Virus record (IMG/VR): IMGVR_UViG_3300021420_000001
Location: 47,481-111,480 of that record
Source of the DNA: a virus
Reading direction: 5' to 3' (one strand)
DNA: 64,000 nt
Part shown: positions 52,687 through 61,646 of the stretch, in pieces
Position numbering within the stretch: position 1 is the stretch's first letter
How the letters are laid out: every line of letters begins with the position of its first letter
The notes under the pieces: generated by a model
Seen by the model: the letters and a program-made list of their open reading frames with translations, nothing else
What the model was told of the DNA's origin: nothing
Databases searched by the model: none
Translations under genes and position numbers: made by a program

Positions 52687-54233
52687 TACCGAAACGGAAG
52701 ATCAAGGCATTTCTTACGCAGCCCCGCGATGATTTGCGAACGTATAAAAAGCTAACGCTATCTCAGCTCGAAGCGTTGAAGGCCCAACTTCCAGTCCAGC
52801 CTCCGATCTGGAACAAGCTCAAGATTCATCAGAAGGTCGGGTTTCTACTCGGCGCCAAGTACGGGCGTATAGCACTTTGGCTAGACACGGGAACTGGCAA
52901 AAGTTGTTTAAGCATTGCCTTGGCTCGTTATTTCCGGAAACTCAAAACCATCAAGCGATGCCTCATTCTGGTCCCAAACAACATCAATAAATACGAATGG
53001 AAGCGGGAGATCAAAAAGCATTCCCCTGAAACCTCTCACGTCATCCTATCGGGATCATCCTTACAGAAATGGGATCAGCTTCGCAGCAATCAATCGTTCC
53101 TGGTCATCGCGACCTACGCAGGCCTAGTCCGAATGGCCTGCAAGATCGTAAAGAACAAAAAAGGCAAGAACAAACTGGCACCTGATCCCAAACTGGTCCG
53201 AGAACTGGCAAAGGCCTTTGATGGTCTCGTAAACGACGAGTCGACCAGCCTTGGATCGCGATCATCATTAGCGTTCCGCATCTGTCGGCAGATAGGAAAG
53301 AAGGCGCCATTCGTTGCCAACCTATCGGGAACGCCTTTCGGAAGAGACCCGACGCCTCTCTGGGCGCAGATGTTCCTGATCGATGGTGGCGAGTCCCTGG
53401 GTAAGAACCTGGGTCTGTTCCGCGCCGCTTTCTTTACGGCCCAGGAAAACATCTGGTCCGGCTATCCCGAATATACGTTCGACAAGCGCAAGAAGGGTTT
53501 ACTCAACCGTTGCCTGGCCCATCGTTCGATCCGCTATGAAGCTGACAAGGCCGATCTGCCCCCGGTCGTTTCCATCGTCAAATACATTCGTTTGCCTTCT
53601 GACGCCAAGACCTACTATGAGAAGGCAAAGGAACGTTTAATCGCCGCCCACGGTAATTATCAGGAACAGAAGAACTCCTTCTTACGCCTCAGGCAAATAT
53701 CATCAGGCTTCCTTGGTTACAAAGATGACGAGCGCGGCGTAAAGGCGCAAGTCGAGTTCAATCCCAATCCCAAATTGGAAATGCTCCTGAGTATCATCCA
53801 GGCTGCTCAGGCTTCGTATAAAATCTGCGTAATGCATGACTTCATCTTTTCCGGTACAATGATCGCCCGCGAGCTCAAAAAGCTCGGCATCGGTTACGCT
53901 CGAGTTTATGGAAAGACGAAGAAGGAGGCGCCCGAGCAGTTACGTAAATTTGACGAGGACGAGGACTGCCGGGTGTTCATCATCAACTCGGCAGGCGCGT
54001 TCGGGCTAAATCTTCAGCGCGCAAAAGCCATGATTTTTTTTGAGAGTCCGGTCAGCCCGATGATTCGTACCCAAATGGAGCGTCGCGTCGAACGTCAAGG
54101 CTCGACCCACAACAAAGTTTTCCGATACGATCTTCTGACTGAGCACACCGTAGACCAACAAATCCGGGATATGCATGCAGAAGGTAAATCTTTGTTGGAA
54201 GCAATCGTTAATGGGGTTATAATCCCCAAATGA
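52683..54233 (+). CDS. SNF2-family helicase
   Basis: DTGTGKS, DES, LSGTP, LRQISSGF, GLNLQ, Q...RV.RQG. Confidence 0.9.
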   Translation: MIPKRKIKAFLTQPRDDLRTYKKLTLSQLEALKAQLPVQPPIWNKLKIHQKVGFLLGAKYGRIALWLDTGTGKSCLSIALARYFRKLKTIKRCLILVPNNINKYEWKREIKKHSPETSHVILSGSSLQKWDQLRSNQSFLVIATYAGLVRMACKIVKNKKGKNKLAPDPKLVRELAKAFDGLVNDESTSLGSRSSLAFRICRQIGKKAPFVANLSGTPFGRDPTPLWAQMFLIDGGESLGKNLGLFRAAFFTAQENIWSGYPEYTFDKRKKGLLNRCLAHRSIRYEADKADLPPVVSIVKYIRLPSDAKTYYEKAKERLIAAHGNYQEQKNSFLRLRQISSGFLGYKDDERGVKAQVEFNPNPKLEMLLSIIQAAQASYKICVMHDFIFSGTMIARELKKLGIGYARVYGKTKKEAPEQLRKFDEDEDCRVFIINSAGAFGLNLQRAKAMIFFESPVSPMIRTQMERRVERQGSTHNKVFRYDLLTEHTVDQQIRDMHAEGKSLLEAIVNGVIIPK

Positions 54234-54871
54234 AAATAAACCAGACGGACTTTACTAATGAGCGCTTCGGTCGCCTAGTGGTTATAAAACGAGCGCCCAA
54301 TGAACGCAAATACGTTACTACATGGGTTTGTCACTGTGATTGTGGTAGCAAAGTAAATGTTTCTATTTACCGCTTGCTTTCAAAGGAAACGCGAAGCTGT
54401 GGTTGTTTGCATAAAGAGCAATTAATTAAACGATCGACAACCCATAACCATGCCTACACAAAAACGTATACGACATGGGTAAATATGAGAGCGAGGTGCT
54501 TTGATCCGAATAATCCCTCTTACCATCGTTACGGTGGGCGTGGAATCACGGTTTGCCCGCGATGGCTTACTTTTGAAAATTTCTTGGCTGATATGGGTGA
54601 TCGCCCTTCGGGCACATCCATAGAACGCAAAAACAATAACGGCAGTTATGAACCCGAAAATTGTTGCTGGGCCTCCTCGGAAGAACAAGCACGAAACCAT
54701 GGTCTTAGAAAAGATAATAAATCAGGGCACTGTGGGGTTAGAAAATGTTGGAGTAAATGGTTAGCAATTATCAGCGTTAATCAAACGCAAATTATTCTAG
54801 GGCGGTTCAAAAGTAAAGCAGAAGCTATCATTGCTCGAAAGAATGCGGAACATTTCTACTGGAGAAAATAA
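54230..54871 (+). CDS. HNH/AP2-type homing endonuclease
   Basis: FGRLVV, C.CDCG, SCGC, YGGRGITVC.RW..FENF..DMG, SIER.NN...YEP.NC.WA, AP2-like C-terminus; AT-rich. Confidence 0.85.
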   Translation: MKINQTDFTNERFGRLVVIKRAPNERKYVTTWVCHCDCGSKVNVSIYRLLSKETRSCGCLHKEQLIKRSTTHNHAYTKTYTTWVNMRARCFDPNNPSYHRYGGRGITVCPRWLTFENFLADMGDRPSGTSIERKNNNGSYEPENCCWASSEEQARNHGLRKDNKSGHCGVRKCWSKWLAIISVNQTQIILGRFKSKAEAIIARKNAEHFYWRK

Positions 54872-54872
54872 T

Positions 54873-55027
54873 ACAGTGGACGTCCAGATTTGGAGCTAAC
54901 CACAAAGACGGGGGCCGACCTTCTCAAGGCTGTGATCGAGGGGACGGTCGATACCCAGATCAGGCAATTCCACGTAGAGGGTTCGGACCTCCTCCAGGCA
55001 ATCATCAACGGGACAGCCCCAATTTGA
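54873..55027 (+). pseudogene. two relic copies of the SNF2 helicase 3' end
   Basis: TVDVQIWS/NHKDG/ADLLKAVIEG (frameshifted) and TVDTQIRQFHVEGSDLLQAIINGTAPI* versus helicase TVDQQIRDMHAEGKSLLEAIVNGVIIPK*. Confidence 0.8.
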
Positions 55028-55322
55028 GCCCTCTGGGAACCCGCAGAAAGGGTCGTGGACGCGTTCCTTGCCCCTGGACCCTATCTGGGTAGCCCTCTGC
55101 CCCGAAAACGCGTCCTGGACCGTCCCCTGGACTCCCATAAGCATTGCTTATGCCCCATAAACCCAGGAAAAGCTACGTTTCCGGGGCTTTACCTATGTAT
55201 AAAAAGGAGTTGTTCCGGGAACGGGAAAGGTCCATATTACGTATAGGATCTGAGTTGGGAATGGGACAGCGCCACCGATATTAGGGGCCAGAGCCCGAGC
55301 GAGAAAAGTCGCGAACCTGAAC

Positions 55323-55350
55323 TTGACCTGTCTCTCAAAATGGGCATCCT
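55323..55350 (+). promoter_or_regulatory. candidate early promoter TTGACC-N16-CATCCT
   Basis: CTTGAC -35 of alphaproteobacterial type just upstream of the structured leader; -10 weak. Confidence 0.35.
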
Positions 55351-55632
55351 GGAACGCGGCGAGATCAATTTTCATTGACACCGCGCGACCGACTCGACCA
55401 ACCGCCATGCATTTTGCGAATGCCCTTCGCGGCCGTAGTAGCAACTCAATGCAGACGGTGTCAGAAAATTGACGACCTCATCCCTACCACTTTCGAGCAT
55501 CGAAACATGACAGTAGCCTTGGTCGGCGAAAATGCCTGACCTGTTGTGCTCATGCCTCGGTTCCTCGTCACGCAGCTTCAGTGCCGAACCGAGCTTCACG
55601 CAAACCCCGAGATCGCTAGTGGCGGATGTTGT

Positions 55633-55734
55633 ATCTCTCTCTTCTCCTAAAACAGAAAGTGGTCCGCAGTGATGCGCGCCACTCGTTGCACTTGAGCAAT
55701 GCAACCTGATGACGAGCTCACATAGGAGAGAGAT
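55633..55734 (+). ncRNA. type II hammerhead ribozyme candidate with RBS-sequestering flank
   Basis: GAAA 55655-58, stem III with GUGA loop, CUC cleavage triplet ending 55684, stem I GUUGCA/UGCAAC, CUGAUGA 55706-12, loop-I UGAGC pairing GCUCA 55716-20; stem II closing pair is A-C rather than canonical. Confidence 0.7.
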
Positions 55735-55735
55735 C

Positions 55736-55954
55736 ATGGCTAAGGCCTTTGAAGTTCAGAAGTCCAACTATGATGCAGCCCGGCCGTTTGCGGTAGTCGC
55801 AACGTTCCGTAGCTTCAACAAGATCATGGGACGATACGCAGATGAAGCCTCCGCCAAGCGTCGGGCGCGCGTTCTCAACAAACGCAACGCCGATTTGGAT
55901 TATCTCAGCGAACGCCGGACGGTGGTTTTCGCGCTGCCGGAAGTCAATTACTGA
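55736..55954 (+). CDS. early small protein
   Basis: CATAGGAGAGAGA RBS. Confidence 0.75.
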   Translation: MAKAFEVQKSNYDAARPFAVVATFRSFNKIMGRYADEASAKRRARVLNKRNADLDYLSERRTVVFALPEVNY

Positions 55955-55955
55955 G

Positions 55956-56135
55956 ATGGCTAATTGTTGTGATTGTGGGGTTCGGCTTAGCGGCTGGACC
56001 CCACCTCCGCCATTCCGGCCCTTGTGCATGGATTGCGGAAACCGGATGCTGGCTCAAAAATATCTCGCACATCGTTGCGAGCCTGAGCCTGAAGCTAAAC
56101 CTGAGCCGGAGGTTGACGATCGTTATATTTTCTGA
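55956..56135 (+). CDS. early small Cys-rich protein
   Basis: CCDCG...CMDC; ATG follows the previous stop. Confidence 0.5.
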   Translation: MANCCDCGVRLSGWTPPPPFRPLCMDCGNRMLAQKYLAHRCEPEPEAKPEPEVDDRYIF

Positions 56136-56201
56136 ACGCAGCTAGGAAGGTTCTTCGGAACCTTCTCAGGGTGCGTTTATGCACTACATAGGAGAGAGAA
56201 C
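56135..56201 (+). repeat. structured intergenic element E1 + RBS
   Basis: AACGCAGC-TAG-GAAGGTTC(TTCG)GAACCTTC-TCA-GGGTGCGTT; alternative hairpin GTGCG/TGCAC; CATAGGAGAGAGAA. Confidence 0.8.
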
Positions 56202-56396
56202 ATGGACAAACAAACTATGGAAGAGTTTGCAATAGCCGCTGCTCACGGTATAAACGAATTTTTACAATCAATCCGAGGGGCACGAACCCACGCCGACGTG
56301 GTTGTGGAAACGCAACCCGCTATCAGGTTAATAATCAAGTTACCTGATGATACATATTTGGAAATGCCCATCAACGGGCCCCATCATACCTTGTAG
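56202..56396 (+). CDS. early small protein
   Basis: follows E1 RBS. Confidence 0.75.
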   Translation: MDKQTMEEFAIAAAHGINEFLQSIRGARTHADVVVETQPAIRLIIKLPDDTYLEMPINGPHHTL

Positions 56397-56397
56397 T

Positions 56398-56468
56398 GGT
56401 ATCGAAGCAGGCATTTTCGGATGCCTGTCACGATGCCCTTCTTAAGGGTGTCTACATAGGAGAGAGAA
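56398..56468 (+). repeat. structured intergenic element E2 + RBS
   Basis: GGTATCG-AAG-CAGGCATT(TTCG)GATGCCTG-TCA-CGATGCC; alternative hairpin GATGCCCT/AGGGTGTC. Confidence 0.85.
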
Positions 56469-56924
56469 ATGACTGATGACAATACGTCACCATTTGTTCC
56501 TGGTGCGCGCGTTGCAATCCAGAGTAAATACACGACTCACGGCTACACCGAAGGGTTCGTGGACAAGGTCCACAAGCCGCGCGGTAAATACTCCGACTAC
56601 GGGAACATCACGCTGAAGGGTTCTGCCCAACAATACCGGGTCAGCCGTTCGCGGGGTTTCGGGGATGACGTTGGCATGCGTTGGGGTGCATCCTCGACCG
56701 GGGATGAATGGCGGCACACCTTCATCTATCCCTGGGATGCGAAAATTGAAAAGGAGATCGCCGAACAGCGCGAGTCCAATAAGCGCCAACGTCGGATCAA
56801 CCGATTGGAGCAAGCCGTCAAGGCCATGCACCGCGACAACAAACTGCTCGATGGATTCCTCGATACGATCGAAGAGTTCGAGTTGTACGACCAACTCGCG
56901 CCTGTCGAGACGAAGGTTGCGTAA
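56469..56924 (+). CDS. early hypothetical protein
   Basis: follows E2 RBS. Confidence 0.8.
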   Translation: MTDDNTSPFVPGARVAIQSKYTTHGYTEGFVDKVHKPRGKYSDYGNITLKGSAQQYRVSRSRGFGDDVGMRWGASSTGDEWRHTFIYPWDAKIEKEIAEQRESNKRQRRINRLEQAVKAMHRDNKLLDGFLDTIEEFELYDQLAPVETKVA

Positions 56925-56928
56925 ACTG

Positions 56929-57000
56929 ATCCAGCGCAGAGGGCTTCACGGAGCCCTCGACGGTGGATGGTTTTTGTTCACCAAAACATAGGAGAGAGAA
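56929..57000 (+). repeat. structured intergenic element E3 + RBS
   Basis: ATCCAGCG-CAG-AGGGCTT(CACG)GAGCCCT-CGA-CGGTGGAT; alternative hairpin GGTGGATG/TGTTCACC. Confidence 0.8.
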
Positions 57001-57990
57001 ATGACAGACGCAGTTGAAACGATGGCGTTCGCAGGAACTACGCCATGGCATGGTAAGGGGTTCCCAGTCAACAGCAATATGACGCCCCAAGAGATGCTGG
57101 TGGCGAGTAAGACCAATTGGACCGTATCCAAGAAGCCGATCTACTTCGAAAAGGCCGGCAAGATGGAGATCGTGCCCGATCGGTTCGCTCTCATCCGCGA
57201 TTCGGATGAGTCCTGCCTGTCGCTCGTCGGCAGCAAATGGAAAGTCAACCAGAACGAAAAGACGTTCGACTTCTTCTCCAAATACGTCAAGGAAGGCAAG
57301 ATGGGGATGGAGACGGCGGGTTCGCTCTGGTCCGGCCGATACGTCTGGGCGCTCGCGCGGCTCGGTTCCGATTTCGCAATCGGAAAGGACGAGGTCCGCG
57401 GTTACGTCTTATTGGCATCCCCGCACGTCTTTGGGCGGTCGATGCTGATCCAGACCACCGCGATCCGGGTCGTATGTTGGAATACGTTCTCGGCCGCTGT
57501 CGGTTCCAATCTGAAGGGCAAGGGCGGTAACGTGTTCCGCATCCCACATTCCCAGGAGTTCAATGATACGGCCAAGGCAGCCGCCGCATTGACCCTGGGT
57601 CTGGCAACCGAGCAGATGGTCGAGTTCAAGGAGGTCGCGACGTTGCTTTCCAGGAAGAAGGCGACGGCTCCCAAGACCGAGGAGTTCTTCTGCGAGGTCC
57701 TCAAGTTCGATCCCAAGGACGCCGTCAAGAAGAAGGATGGTGAGGACAAGGAGCCCCGCATGTTGTCCAAGTTCCGGGCGGCCCTGACCCATGCTCCGGG
57801 CCAGGAAATGCCCTCGGCTTTGGGCACGTGGTGGGGCAATTTCAATGCGATTACGCACGTGATCGATCATGAGGTCGGCCGCGATCGTGACACCGCGTTG
57901 AAGGCGGCCTGGGTCGGTGGTCACGCCAACCTGAAGCGTGATGCCCTGAAGCTCGCAATCGACTACGCGACCAAGAGTAAGGCGGCGTGA
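57001..57990 (+). CDS. DUF932/DUF945-family protein
   Basis: VETMAFAG.TPWHG.G, METAGSL..GR.VWALA, IRVVCWNT, GTWWG.FNA.T...DH. Confidence 0.88.
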   Translation: MTDAVETMAFAGTTPWHGKGFPVNSNMTPQEMLVASKTNWTVSKKPIYFEKAGKMEIVPDRFALIRDSDESCLSLVGSKWKVNQNEKTFDFFSKYVKEGKMGMETAGSLWSGRYVWALARLGSDFAIGKDEVRGYVLLASPHVFGRSMLIQTTAIRVVCWNTFSAAVGSNLKGKGGNVFRIPHSQEFNDTAKAAAALTLGLATEQMVEFKEVATLLSRKKATAPKTEEFFCEVLKFDPKDAVKKKDGEDKEPRMLSKFRAALTHAPGQEMPSALGTWWGNFNAITHVIDHEVGRDRDTALKAAWVGGHANLKRDALKLAIDYATKSKAA

Positions 57991-58077
57991 TATGAACCGC
58001 TTTATGATCTCGGTCGAGTTGGTGCTGTTCTGGGCTTCGACCATAATGATCGGAGCCATTCTTTTTCTACGCTAAGT

Positions 58078-58151
58078 CACAAGCACAGCAGGCATCTAAG
58101 TCGGTGCCTGTCATGGTTGTGTACTTGCAACCAAAACATAGGAGAGAGAAA
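58078..58151 (+). repeat. structured intergenic element E4 + RBS
   Basis: CACAAGCA-CAG-CAGGCATC(TAAGTC)GGTGCCTG-TCA-TGGTTGTG; alternative hairpin GGTTGT/GCAACC. Confidence 0.85.
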
Positions 58152-58370
58152 ATGCAGTACTATACGTTTTCAGGACCGGCCGACATGAAGTTCGGAAAGA
58201 CGTCGGTCAAGGCGGAAACCGAGAAGGATGCCCGACACCTCGCCATGGTCGCGCGATGGGGGCGTCCCAACGGAAAGCCCCATCCCGGCGATACCGGCCC
58301 AGACGGGCGGTATCTGAGTCACGGGCTCGAGTTGCTCGATATCAGCGACAAACCTCCGGTGGAGGAATAG
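58152..58370 (+). CDS. early small protein
   Basis: follows E4 RBS. Confidence 0.75.
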   Translation: MQYYTFSGPADMKFGKTSVKAETEKDARHLAMVARWGRPNGKPHPGDTGPDGRYLSHGLELLDISDKPPVEE

Positions 58371-58537
58371 ATGCTATACGAGATCAAGGTCTACGAGTCC
58401 TGGGTCAAGGTCAGTGAATGGATTTTCCGTTCCTGGGGCGGACCGCGACGTCTAAATGGTAAACGCTATCGCGGTCCGGTCTACTACCTTGGAACGGAGA
58501 ACTTCACCAAGAAACCTCCAGCGCCGAGTGTGCGCCG

Positions 58538-58930
58538 ATGAGCACCAAATACCGACCCGGGTCCCGGGTCCAACAGGTGTGGGAGGTCTACGAGAAGGAG
58601 GGTGCCGACGGTGCCACAGCCTTTGGAAAAGGGCTTGGGCTCGCCGATGGCACCCTCAAGGGTTGGATGCGGATGTGGTCGACAGGGATTGACAAGAAGG
58701 CGAAAATGCCTTCTCCGCCCATCTCTACCAAGCCTCCGACCAAGGTGATCCGGACGTCCCGATCCATGCTCGGAAAGGAACGTATCCGGGTCATCGGGAT
58801 TGAAGGTGAGGCCTACCTGATCGCACAGGGGCCTGACCAAAGTGAGATTCGTTGGGTGCATAATGGCAACCAGGTTGTCATACCCAACGATTGGATCGAG
58901 GCAGAGTCCAGCGAAGTGCCCTCCGCGTAG
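58538..58930 (+). CDS. early hypothetical protein
   Basis: co-oriented ORF whose stop lies inside E5. Confidence 0.6.
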   Translation: MSTKYRPGSRVQQVWEVYEKEGADGATAFGKGLGLADGTLKGWMRMWSTGIDKKAKMPSPPISTKPPTKVIRTSRSMLGKERIRVIGIEGEAYLIAQGPDQSEIRWVHNGNQVVIPNDWIEAESSEVPSA

Positions 58931-58972
58931 GAGGGCATCACGCTGCACTTACGCAGCATAGGAGAGAGAACC
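58909..58972 (+). repeat. structured intergenic element E5 + RBS
   Basis: CAGCG-AAG-TGCCCTCC(GCGTA)GGAGGGCA-TCA-CGCTG; alternative hairpin GCTGC/GCAGC. Confidence 0.85.
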
Positions 58973-59317
58973 ATGAACGGACTAGGTATCAATCCCAAGC
59001 ATGTTTGGATTATGCACAACCAAGTCGAGCGTTGTCTGCTCTGTGGAAACACAGCGGCAACTCTTGATCACGTCAAGTTCGTCCGGGAACAGAACGCTCT
59101 GCAACCCCAACGCGAGGCCCTTTTCGCATTGGTCCGCGACCCGGATGATTGGAAGGCGCCGATCGAAGCCTTCATCAAATACGCGTGGAACATCCCCGTC
59201 GAAGACATGGATGATGCTATCGTCCATTTCACCGGCGTGGAAAATACGATCGTCCACGATACCTTCGGATATACGATCAAGTCCGTCGGTTATCGCAACG
59301 GTCCGTGTGGTCCCTAA
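58973..59317 (+). CDS. early hypothetical protein
   Basis: follows E5 RBS; DWKAPI...AIVHFTG...GY..GP. Confidence 0.75.
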   Translation: MNGLGINPKHVWIMHNQVERCLLCGNTAATLDHVKFVREQNALQPQREALFALVRDPDDWKAPIEAFIKYAWNIPVEDMDDAIVHFTGVENTIVHDTFGYTIKSVGYRNGPCGP

Positions 59318-59323
59318 GTCCCT

Positions 59324-59392
59324 ACCGGCCGGGCGGCTCCTTCGGGAGCCGTCTCCCGGTGCGGATTGACCGTACCAACATAGGAGAGAGAA
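59324..59392 (+). repeat. structured intergenic element E6 (variant) + RBS
   Basis: ACCGG-CCG-GGCGGCTCC(TTCG)GGAGCCGTC-TC-CCGGT; alternative hairpin GGTGCGG/CCGTACC. Confidence 0.7.
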
Positions 59393-59602
59393 ATGGCTAA
59401 AGCATCTTTGGGACAGCGTCGCGCTCTTCGACTCGTCGACGAGAACCAAGCCTGTCTGAACGAGCGAATCTACCGCCATGGCGTGGACGATCCGAACAAG
59501 CTCAGGCTCGAGTTGGAAGGGCTCCGCAATGCCTGGTTGCATTCGGGGGCCTTGCCCTACACGGAGAACCTGACCATCGTCGACGTCGAAGCGACGCGGT
59601 GA
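59393..59602 (+). CDS. early small protein
   Basis: follows E6 RBS. Confidence 0.7.
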   Translation: MAKASLGQRRALRLVDENQACLNERIYRHGVDDPNKLRLELEGLRNAWLHSGALPYTENLTIVDVEATR

Positions 59603-59790
59603 TTGACGTGATCAGGAAAACGAAAAAGCCCGGCGGGCCCGTCCGATATGATGTCGTTCTTTACGACATCGACCAGAACGGAACTACGATGACCTGGTAT
59701 GTATACTCGGAGGAAGGGGCACAAAGACATGCCACCGACCTCCGCGTACAGCACCCCGGAAAGAAGGTCGAAATTCGGGTCGGAGCATAG
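59599..59790 (+). CDS. early small protein
   Basis: GTGA overlap with the previous stop. Confidence 0.55.
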   Translation: MIDVIRKTKKPGGPVRYDVVLYDIDQNGTTMTWYVYSEEGAQRHATDLRVQHPGKKVEIRVGA

Positions 59791-59866
59791 AGTTCAGCGC
59801 AGCAGGCATCTCAGACGGTGCCTGTCACGCTGTACTACTTACGTATGGCAAACATAGGAGAGAGAA
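59791..59866 (+). repeat. structured intergenic element E7 + RBS
   Basis: CAGCG-CAG-CAGGCATC(TCAGAC)GGTGCCTG-TCA-CGCTG; alternative hairpin GCTGTAC/GTATGGC. Confidence 0.85.
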
Positions 59867-60172
59867 ATGAGTTTCAAGAACATTCGCAATATCGGGCGTC
59901 CATGGCAGTTCAAATTCGCTATGCGCGATCTACTGAACGATGATACGTCGAGCGAGAATGCTCGACGGGTAGCGGAAGCACTTGCTGCTCGCATCAAAAG
60001 CTTTCTGAAACAAACCAATCTACTGGAACCGGCTGCAGCCAAACAAGGTCGGCTTCTTGCAGAACGGTTGGATCGTGCTGCCAAGAATACGGACTACGAC
60101 GTGGACTACTTCAACCATGATCTCGATGTGTTCTGGGATTGGGCAGACGATGCCCGCATCCTAGTTGAATAA
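59867..60172 (+). CDS. early hypothetical protein
   Basis: follows E7 RBS; F...LD.FWDWAD..RI.V. Confidence 0.75.
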   Translation: MSFKNIRNIGRPWQFKFAMRDLLNDDTSSENARRVAEALAARIKSFLKQTNLLEPAAAKQGRLLAERLDRAAKNTDYDVDYFNHDLDVFWDWADDARILVE

Positions 60173-60211
60173 AAGTTCGTAGCGAAGGCAGGCTTTGCGG
60201 AGCCTGCTCAC

Positions 60212-60822
60212 TTCTTAAATAAATCTTCCATCTGTACTTCGAGTCCGCGCTTTAGCATATATAGAATGTTTAAACCTCCTTTCCGTAGTTTGTTTCCGAG
60301 GTTGGATTTTATTTCCTAACATAAGTCTTCGCAATTCTGCCCGACGTTCTGGAGAGCACTTTCTTTCTCGATCATTCTCCAACTTAGTTATAATTCGAAC
60401 ATTTCCGACAGCGTAGGGACCTTTATCACCAAAGCGGGCCATGCAATATTGATCTGCGCGTTTACCACGTTCTTCCCAATGCCCCGAGTCCTGCCAAATC
60501 TTCCACCATTCTTCAAATGTAAACAAAAAAGGAATTTTCCGCCCTCTGGCTGAGCCGATATGTTCACAAAACTTTTGATAAGGTATTGTGGGGTAATTAT
60601 GCTTTGGTGGTTTTGGTTTTCGTGGTTTACGCGGCGATTTAGATCGTTTACGAGTTCCGCTAGCCCAGCTATCTAAAGCAGCCAAACGTATGTTTTCGCA
60701 ATGTTCTGGAGTTCGCGGTTTGCGCTTGTAGATACCACGCGGCATGTTGCTTCTCCCAAAGGTTCTCTGACGATCGGGGAACCCTTGGGAGGAACACCCG
60801 ATCGTCAGGACAACTGCCCGGA
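60212..60822 (-). mobile_element. free-standing endonuclease cassette inserted in E8
   Basis: AT-rich, opposite-strand gene with its own structured leader; boundaries inferred from restoring the E8 stem. Confidence 0.55.
60215..60745 (-). CDS. His-Me finger (HNH-like) endonuclease with NUMOD3-like basic motifs
   Basis: F.FTFEEWW..W..SGHW..RG.....YCMARFGDKGPY.VGNV.I....EN. Confidence 0.75.
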   Translation of the reverse strand: MPRGIYKRKPRTPEHCENIRLAALDSWASGTRKRSKSPRKPRKPKPPKHNYPTIPYQKFCEHIGSARGRKIPFLFTFEEWWKIWQDSGHWEERGKRADQYCMARFGDKGPYAVGNVRIITKLENDRERKCSPERRAELRRLMLGNKIQPRKQTTERRFKHSIYAKARTRSTDGRFI

Positions 60823-60890
60823 GCTACCGAGCGGTTGCTATCCTAAAGGGTTTTCCTCAAAACTGCAAATTTACAACATAGGAGAGAGAA

Positions 60891-61646
60891 ATGAACGATT
60901 CACTGAAGGAAAAATTGATCGAGAAGATTCGCAAGTTGCTTGCGCTTGCGGGTTCATCGAACGAGCATGAAGCGGCTCTGGCCGCCGAAAAGGCTCAAGC
61001 CATGCTTGCCGAGTATAATCTTTCGCTCGCCGACATCGATGACGACAAAGAGTCGGACGACTTCGTCATCGACAAAGAGTTGGAAAATGATTCGTTCCCA
61101 TGGAAGCGCCAGGTCGCCGTCATGGTCGCGAAACTCTACTTCTGCACCTACTTCTTTACGCAGTTCAAGCGTTTCGTCAACCAGCGCATCGTCCGACTCG
61201 ATCGTCATAATTTCGTTGGTGCGCAACACAACATCGCCGTGACCAAGGCGATGTTCGTCTATCTGGTCGCGACGGTGGAACGGTTGGCGCAAGAAGGCGG
61301 TCGGCAGGTTCCGTCCTCCGAACGCGAAGCCTACCGGCGGGCGTTCATGTGGGCCTGTACCCATCGACTCAGTCGGCGCATTGCCGAACGGATCGCGGCG
61401 GCACGTGCCGGCATGGGAATCAAGACCGAATCCGGCAATACGTTGCCCGCACTCGCCAACCTCTACGATCAGGCCGAACAGTCCCTGAAGAACTTTCTGG
61501 ATGGGAATGTCGGCAAGTTGAAGACGGCCAAACGTGGCGGCAAGATCAGTTCCGCGCAGGGTGCCGAAGATGGGCGCGCTGCCGGTGACCGCATCGGCCT
61601 TGACACCCAGTTGACGGGCAAGGCTGCTGCGCATTTGCTGCGTTAA
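60891..61646 (+). CDS. DUF2786-domain protein
   Basis: EKIRKLLALA.SSNEHEA.LA.EKAQAML.EYNL; C-terminal G..DG..AG..I.L. Confidence 0.85.
   Translation: MNDSLKEKLIEKIRKLLALAGSSNEHEAALAAEKAQAMLAEYNLSLADIDDDKESDDFVIDKELENDSFPWKRQVAVMVAKLYFCTYFFTQFKRFVNQRIVRLDRHNFVGAQHNIAVTKAMFVYLVATVERLAQEGGRQVPSSEREAYRRAFMWACTHRLSRRIAERIAAARAGMGIKTESGNTLPALANLYDQAEQSLKNFLDGNVGKLKTAKRGGKISSAQGAEDGRAAGDRIGLDTQLTGKAAAHLLR

Follow-up and report, generated by a model that had tools for sequence, protein, structure and literature searches.

Introduction

Type II hammerhead ribozymes with a pseudoknot, their clusters in prophages and a hammerhead preceding the first early ORF of phages HF1 and HF2 are already published (PMC3088659). 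The clusters have been observed to flank single genes in prophages and phages of Agrobacterium, Azorhizobium and Clostridium scindens (Perreault 2011, PMC3088659), and in the haloarchaeal phages HF1 and HF2 the transcript's mapped 5' end coincides with the hammerhead that precedes the first early ORF (PMC3088659). The role of hammerheads encoded in bacterial and phage genomes has been described as an open question (PMC6765202).

In the literature searched, masking of a ribosome-binding site (RBS) by ribozyme stems was found only as an engineered design. Engineered hammerhead and twister constructs of this kind, in which the Shine-Dalgarno (SD) sequence is masked, give 5- to 100-fold more expression in E. 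coli when the ribozyme is active (PMC5052635), so the principle works.

The element studied here belongs to a 111,480-bp IMG/VR phage record with direct terminal repeats, and all its coordinates refer to the analyzed window, which is the right-hand 64 kb of this record. It is a small, defined case, a hammerhead relative physically coupled to an RBS by a strand conserved in four phages. It bears on whether phages license translation by ribozyme cleavage, as synthetic biologists do, and on how much degeneration of stem II a junction can bear if it is held by a pseudoknot and an outer helix. The case would become stronger if cleavage and gating were shown, and ordinary if the ribozyme were dead. 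The best explanation, to which we assign a probability of roughly 45%, is cleavage-coupled unmasking of the RBS of the adjacent gene (gene 1) by a diverged type II hammerhead and a clamp helix that encloses it.

Genomic context and structure of the element

The region 5' of the element contains genes encoding a DnaB-like helicase, DpdA, an SNF2 helicase and an HNH endonuclease. It is followed by an intergenic gap of ~865-870 nt (54872-55735) without a credible ORF, and then by a rightward array of small genes, ten of which are preceded by a near-identical RBS block, ACAUAGGAGAGAGA. The element occupies the 3' end of the gap, abutting gene 1. Its features and those of its immediate surroundings are as follows.

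55268-55639, plus strand: hammerhead-proximal stretch of the untranslated leader, matched by a 372-nt contig in a soil metatranscriptome run
55633-55649, plus strand: CU-rich anti-RBS tract, the 5' strand of the outer clamp helix, complementary to the RBS at 55723-55734
55650-55654, plus strand: AAA linker followed by C55653 and A55654, the degenerate 5' strand of stem II (xUC or GCC in relatives)
55655-55658, plus strand: core GAAA (G12, A13, A14, A15.1), invariant in 43 relatives
55658-55683, plus strand: stem III hairpin of 6 bp, a C-C mismatch, 4 bp and a GUGA loop, closed by A15.1-U16.1 (A55658-U55683)
55684-55685, plus strand: predicted cleavage site, 3' of C17 (55684) and before G1.1 (55685), according to the hammerhead consensus (PMC3088659)
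55685-55705, plus strand: stem I hairpin of 6 bp (55685-55690 with 55700-55705) with a 9-nt loop that includes UGAGC (55693-55697)
55706-55712, plus strand: core CUGAUGA (C3-A9)
55713-55720, plus strand: C55713, G55714 and A55715 followed by the tail GCUCA (55716-55720), which pairs with loop I
55723-55734, plus strand: RBS of gene 1, UAGGAGAGAGAU, the 3' strand of the clamp helix; the motif recurs before nine further array genes
55736-55954, plus strand: gene 1 (start codon at 55736-55738), encoding a conserved protein of 72 amino acids

The element had been noticed in a first-pass annotation of the letters alone, and on re-check all its coordinates were correct: the stretch 55655-55712 contains every part of a type II core together with stems I and III. 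All 13 core positions are canonical. The strand order is that of type II (II'-GAAA-III-UH-I-CUGANGA-II), with stems I and III closed by loops and stem II open, and the cleavage triplet CUC ends at C55684, so that position 17 is occupied by a nucleotide other than G, as required of H17. The pseudoknot proposed between loop I and the 3' tail was confirmed as well. UGAGC (55693-55697) is complementary to GCUCA (55716-55720) over 5 bp, the criterion being at least four pairs made by loop I with nucleotides just 3' of stem II, and this pairing covaries across the family.

The minimum free energy (MFE) structure given by RNAfold is a three-way junction closed by the helix of the CU tract and the RBS (z = -2.4). 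Judging by the linker lengths, a continuous stack of stem II, the pseudoknot and the clamp would be feasible, with the AAA linker (55650-55652) crossing the pseudoknot minor groove.

The protein encoded by gene 1 has 14 metagenomic homologues (58-81% identity), and no Pfam or PHROG family matched it. The core of the protein can be written as DAARPFAVVATFRSFN...AKRRAR.

Comparison with described systems

The element resembles the Rfam family RF02276 (clan CL00010; PMC3088659) in the core, the strand order, the loop-closed stems I and III, a stem II that is very short and runs directly into the tail pairing with loop I, and the phage intergenic location 5' of an RBS. Unlike RF02276, it has C-A and not G-C at 10.1-11.1 and a single Watson-Crick pair in stem II, lies below the Rfam threshold and is enclosed by a 12-pair outer helix. 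Clustered arrays, both the published ones (Perreault 2011) and those of four related phages considered below (G006, G007, G008 and G001), are formed by the same family at the same position relative to the shared RBS, with cutting of a polycistronic early transcript as the presumed role in all cases. In contrast to them, this phage has a single copy at the array head, while eight other positions are taken by hairpins with an NAG/UCA internal loop.

As in the engineered SD switches (Ogawa and Maeda; Wieland and Hartig 2008; twister, PMC5052635), the SD sequence is part of a helix closed by a ribozyme, and cleavage would put SD and anti-SD on separate molecules. However, the element is natural and has no aptamer, its masking helix comprises 12 pairs with a predicted Kd of ~5e-11 M, and its anti-SD strand belongs to the side of a type II scaffold on which stem II is open. 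The HF1/HF2 hammerhead (HHphage) is likewise located just 5' of the ORF that opens an early polycistronic transcript and likewise has non-consensus features adjacent to the core, but these are insertions near C3, and RBS masking is not described for it. Finally, the CChMVd (+) hammerhead (PMC1636495) has an extra A10 between A9 and G10.1, comparable to U or C in the G006, G007 and G008 copies and to C55713 of the element, although it is a viroid ribozyme of a different type with an otherwise canonical stem II.

Hammerhead arrays in related phages

A blastn search with 55400-56200 against GenBank phages gave no match, single-protein locus searches with gene 1 and the DUF932 protein of the array produced no relatives, and a scan of viral contigs for the RBS motif yielded single chance matches only. 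Comparison of portal proteins led to G001 as the closest relative (72% identity), which has two textbook type II hammerheads between genes. Rfam scores one of these, and the unscored copy shares loop-I UUGAGCA and tail AGCUC with the element. With a pattern based on this pseudoknot, about 16 more hammerheads of type II were found in viral contigs, and these led to array-bearing phages. The array of G006 (IMGVR_UViG_3300050821_005831; L175:4631-14668, minus strand) comprises 16 hammerheads in 10 kb, 15 of them being Rfam matches. At least seven hammerheads are present in G007 and three in G008, and the contigs behind L147, L173 and L174 contain more arrays. The array hammerheads end a few nucleotides 5' of a shared RBS, with one hammerhead for each RBS; G006 and G007 have AGGAGAGAGA in this role. 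The first hammerheads of G006 and G007 are located on the minus strand, at L175:14585-14668 and L178:3949-4041, respectively. Multi-copy arrays are seen in these relatives only. In nearly all G006 copies A9 and G10.1 are separated by an additional U or C (CUGAUGA-Y-GAC), and the same is observed in members from G007 and G008.

The eight other inter-gene positions of the array in this phage (56135-60890) are occupied by hairpins, not hammerheads, whereas G006 and G007 have hammerheads at these places. Each is composed of an outer stem, the NAG/UCA internal loop and an inner stem, often CAGGCAU..., and is followed by 15-25 nt and the shared RBS. No Rfam family matches these hairpins; their layout is like that of T7-type RNase III processing sites, or they could represent an uncatalogued processing motif. 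The gene of the DUF932 protein is preceded by a hammerhead in G007 and by a hairpin in this phage. Hammerheads and inter-gene hairpins thus seem to replace one another as processing modules, and this favours a role of the hammerhead in processing.

Homology to type II hammerheads

A descriptor combining the core with stems I and III of at least 6 bp has the element as its sole match in the genome. When the 111-kb genome was Markov-shuffled 200 times, the descriptor matched nowhere, and allowing stems of at least 4 bp gave 0.2 matches per genome. A covariance model (R1), built from 43 related phage hammerheads with this element left out, has a single match in the 64-kb window, at 55648-55724 (26.1 bits, E 1.2e-4). 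The relatives themselves score 44-71 bits, so that the element, ~18 bits below the weakest of them, is the lowest-scoring member of the family. When the whole ~870-nt gap is compared with the relatives by blastn, only 55636-55715 aligns, its partner being the first G006 hammerhead (76% identity, E 5.5e-7).

The differences between these two hammerheads are of the kind that preserves the structure. Stem I shows a G-C to A-U and an A-U to G-C compensatory change, stem III has at least one U-A to G-C change, and every nucleotide of the core and of the pseudoknot is identical. In the 43-member alignment, 93.7% of the cells in the three stems and the pseudoknot are paired, compared to 62% in shuffles, and the covariation score is 0.76, compared to 0.19 in shuffles and ~0.1 when the partners are slid. 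At four of the five pseudoknot pairs compensatory changes occur across the family.

The match to the family model, the island of blastn similarity and the compensatory changes around an intact core and pseudoknot bear out the initial assignment to type II hammerheads: on this comparative evidence the element is a homologue of these ribozymes and has been under selection as RNA. By sequence and position it is a diverged member of the family, homologous to the first hammerhead in early-gene arrays of a group of soil phages.

Stem II and the question of catalysis

The first-pass annotation had mentioned, as a caveat, the A-C pair closing stem II next to the core. This defect is real and graver than it was described. 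C55713 faces A55654, G55714 pairs with C55653, and A55715 faces A55652, leaving only one Watson-Crick pair. The 10.1-11.1 pair of the relatives is G-C in 42 of 43 cases and G-U in the remaining one, and is followed by one or two more pairs; in the element this standard pair is absent. Compared to G006, the 5' strand of stem II has CA in place of UC, and the 3' strand is shorter by 2 nt. C55713 can be regarded either as the counterpart of the extra pyrimidine that follows A9 in G006, G007 and G008, or as a mispaired 10.1. A viroid hammerhead tolerates an additional nucleotide at this place (PMC1636495).

The search with Rfam hammerhead models, suggested earlier as a check, gave no match to the site even at E up to 10. 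Rfam scans of the window, of 55500-55850, of 55648-55724 (77 nt) and of 55200-60950 identified neither hammerheads nor ribozymes of other families. RF02276 had no match over the whole genome either, so the element is below the 37-bit gathering threshold of this family. The Rfam silence is weak evidence, since RF02276 also misses or under-scores relatives with a canonical stem II, namely the second copy of G001 and four copies from G006, G007 and G008 (31-36.6 bits). The claim that the core is the one characteristic of bacterial type II hammerheads therefore holds in part: the core, the topology and the pseudoknot agree with it, but the 10.1-11.1 pair is missing and no Rfam hammerhead model scores the site.

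Core-adjacent mispairs were excluded by Perreault et al. (PMC3088659) unless activity had been demonstrated. Given the stem II defect beside the core and the lack of an Rfam score, self-cleavage of the element is uncertain, but we consider it somewhat probable.

The main alternative is that the element is a catalytically dead relic, and the structured leader either masks the RBS of gene 1 constitutively or serves as a target of a host or phage nuclease. Such decay would agree with the two substitutions and the 2-nt deletion in stem II relative to G006, with C-A at a position mispaired in none of the 43 relatives, and with the lowest score in the family combined with no Rfam match. It would also agree with the replacement of hammerheads by hairpins at all other array positions of this phage, and with the fact that in more distant phages gene 1 homologues are preceded by an anti-SD stretch but have no hammerhead next to them. 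However, the 13 core nucleotides, both stems (with compensatory changes) and the pseudoknot are intact amid an unalignable leader, while decay would not spare precisely the catalytic positions. Moreover, natural hammerheads with a one-pair stem II, or with U-U at 10.1-11.1, are active (Perreault 2011, PMC3088659). Loss of catalysis is considered rather unlikely, and cleavage-coupled unmasking remains the preferred reading.

The anti-RBS clamp

The outer helix comprises 12 pairs and encloses the ribozyme, its strands being located on opposite sides of the cleavage site 55684/55685. Its earlier interpretation as an anti-SD:SD helix stands, since the CU tract at 55633-55649 is complementary to the RBS at 55723-55734 and the helix is kept in three related phages; the label of a distal stem II is better replaced by that of a clamp beyond the degenerate stem II and the pseudoknot. 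The tract occurs once on the plus strand of the array region. A homologous CU tract ending in CUCCUA is located 0-8 nt 5' of stem II in the first hammerhead of G006, the first of G007 and the first gene-proximal one of G008, while it is absent from the internal array copies. As the first genes differ among these phages, the tract tracks the position in the array and not the gene.

In each of the three phages that were folded (this phage, G006 and G007) the tract and the first gene's RBS are base-paired in the MFE structure. With -23.8 kcal/mol in G007, -18.4 kcal/mol in this element and -18.1 kcal/mol in G008, the duplexes formed by the flanks of these three hammerheads are among the four strongest of ~49, the median being near -9 kcal/mol. 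The distal pair U55734-A55633 is replaced by C-G in G007, which is a compensatory change, and the neighbouring A-U is replaced there by G-U, which is a compatible one. Covariation of the clamp consists of this one compensatory pair, with only three relatives carrying the tract, and composition alone makes any CU-rich tract complementary to a purine-rich SD sequence. Formation of the clamp in vivo is considered likely.

A search of viral contigs for the pattern of CU tract, GAAA and RBS yielded G007 and two chance matches only, and the pattern of CU tract and stem III had one chance match in metagenome contigs.

Predicted consequences of cleavage

According to the preferred reading, the operon would be transcribed with a leader of ~400 nt, in which the hammerhead would fold through stems I and III, the loop-I/tail pseudoknot and the one-pair stem II. 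Pairing of the CU-rich leader strand with the RBS of gene 1 would then close the junction and mask the RBS. A cut after C55684 would produce two molecules. One would be the leader, with the anti-RBS tract and the stem III hairpin at its end, and the other the mRNA, which would begin with the stem I hairpin and carry a 5'-OH. The intramolecular RBS mask would thereby become a weaker intermolecular one, and its removal by 30S competition, leader decay or leader refolding would couple the translation of gene 1 to processing.

The energetics of these steps were estimated by nearest-neighbour calculations of SD pairing and product binding, in which the pseudoknot was ignored. In the uncleaved RNA the SD sequence is predicted to be paired at ~99% in this phage, G007 and G006, and in the free 3' product it is predicted to be unpaired at 56%, 76% and 53%, respectively. 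The calculated binding energy of the two cleavage products is -14.7 kcal/mol in this phage (Kd ~5e-11 M), -16.3 kcal/mol in G007 (Kd ~4e-12 M) and -12.2 kcal/mol in G006 (Kd ~3e-9 M). These values do not agree with the original proposal that self-cleavage would be accompanied by release of the 5' piece: in this phage the products are predicted to stay paired, and spontaneous release during infection appears unlikely without help. Since the products would stay paired, unmasking would need ribosome competition, nuclease action or leader decay, leader refolding, or an alternative partner. A gain in translation of gene 1 after cleavage is possible but doubtful.

The same prediction that the products remain paired is in line with another role of the clamp. 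The ribozyme may be active and the clamp may be a folding aid that insulates the junction from the leader, in which case cleavage would trim the leader and provide the mRNA with a defined, hairpin-protected 5' end, leaving translation of gene 1 unaffected. Among the hammerheads, the first alone lacks a translated ORF upstream, the internal ones starting on or next to stop codons, and the longest clamp (12 pairs) is found in this phage, where stem II is the weakest. On the other hand, the clamp of G007 is equally long despite a canonical 3-bp stem II. Furthermore, any sequence could serve as a clamp, yet four phages use the RBS, with the pairing extending into the spacer and showing a compensatory change. 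This joint role in folding and 5'-end formation is judged unlikely.

Leader RNA

In the soil metatranscriptome run, one 372-nt contig is 100% identical to 55268-55639, and nothing else of 55000-61000 is represented; such contigs show neither the strand nor the true ends of the RNA, and the uncovered parts carry no weight. The whole 55000-61000 stretch is present in a DNA run, probably from the source sample. The RNA contig ends at 55639, which is 7 nt into the CU tract and 45 nt short of the predicted cut. It fits a stable leader or non-coding RNA as a weak hint, and is not support for cleavage.

A sigma-70-like sequence, TTGTTC-N17-CATATT, is found at ~55208-55240. A candidate intrinsic terminator at 55613-55625 was rejected, as the scan gave two sites with 1.5 expected, and so was the suggestion that the leader is an unusually stable fold (z = -1.3). 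No conservation of the leader sequence was detected by blastn in G006, G007, G008 and G001, and no Rfam family matched the leader.

The cleaved leader might itself act in trans, as a stable small anti-RBS RNA that anneals to the identical RBSs of the nine or ten array genes and tunes or times their translation. Complementarity of the tract extends to the shared ACAUAGGAGAGAGA before nine further genes, and the leader is the only part of 55000-61000 seen in the RNA run, but the contig stops 7 nt into the tract, and one leader would be produced per transcript with ten RBSs. Moreover, the leader would be born paired in cis, its sequence is not conserved, and its fold is not unusual. A trans-acting leader is considered improbable. 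The combination of both activities at first hammerheads, that is, a natural ribozyme-gated switch together with a ~400-nt regulatory leader RNA pairing with every array RBS, seems quite unlikely as well; if true, it would give phage hammerheads a defined regulatory function.

The remaining readings, a chance motif, which is contradicted by the shuffles, the family model and blastn, or a CU tract that reads on the opposite strand as the RBS of a divergent gene, for which an opposite-strand ATG after the tract opens a 126-aa ORF in G006 but which was rejected because no minus-strand start codon follows the tract in this phage and the G006 ORF is dissimilar to the minus-strand ORF found here, are extremely improbable.

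Other observations in related contigs

The HNH endonuclease gene is located between the SNF2 helicase gene and the leader both in the window (54230-54871) and in G007 (L178:4415-4906), and is absent in G006. In two other phages, at L147:8100-8125 and L174:3355-3380 (minus strand), a conserved sequence, TTGACATCGTTAGGGA, precedes the first hammerhead of the array and may be a promoter abutting the ribozyme. In G008 (L179:4173-4620), two hammerheads are each followed by an identical non-coding stretch of ~45 nt without an RBS. This arrangement, located 5' of the first gene-proximal copy, resembles a repeated hammerhead-plus-spacer unit.

Four viral-contig homologues of gene 1, which belong to more distant phages, have no hammerhead beside the gene. 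In L183-L185 (~1040-1200), an upstream sequence, GGUUGUCUCC, ~45 nt 5', can pair over 10 positions with the SD region GGAGACGGCC, and the unit UAUCCGGUUG..UCCCAC occurs there twice.
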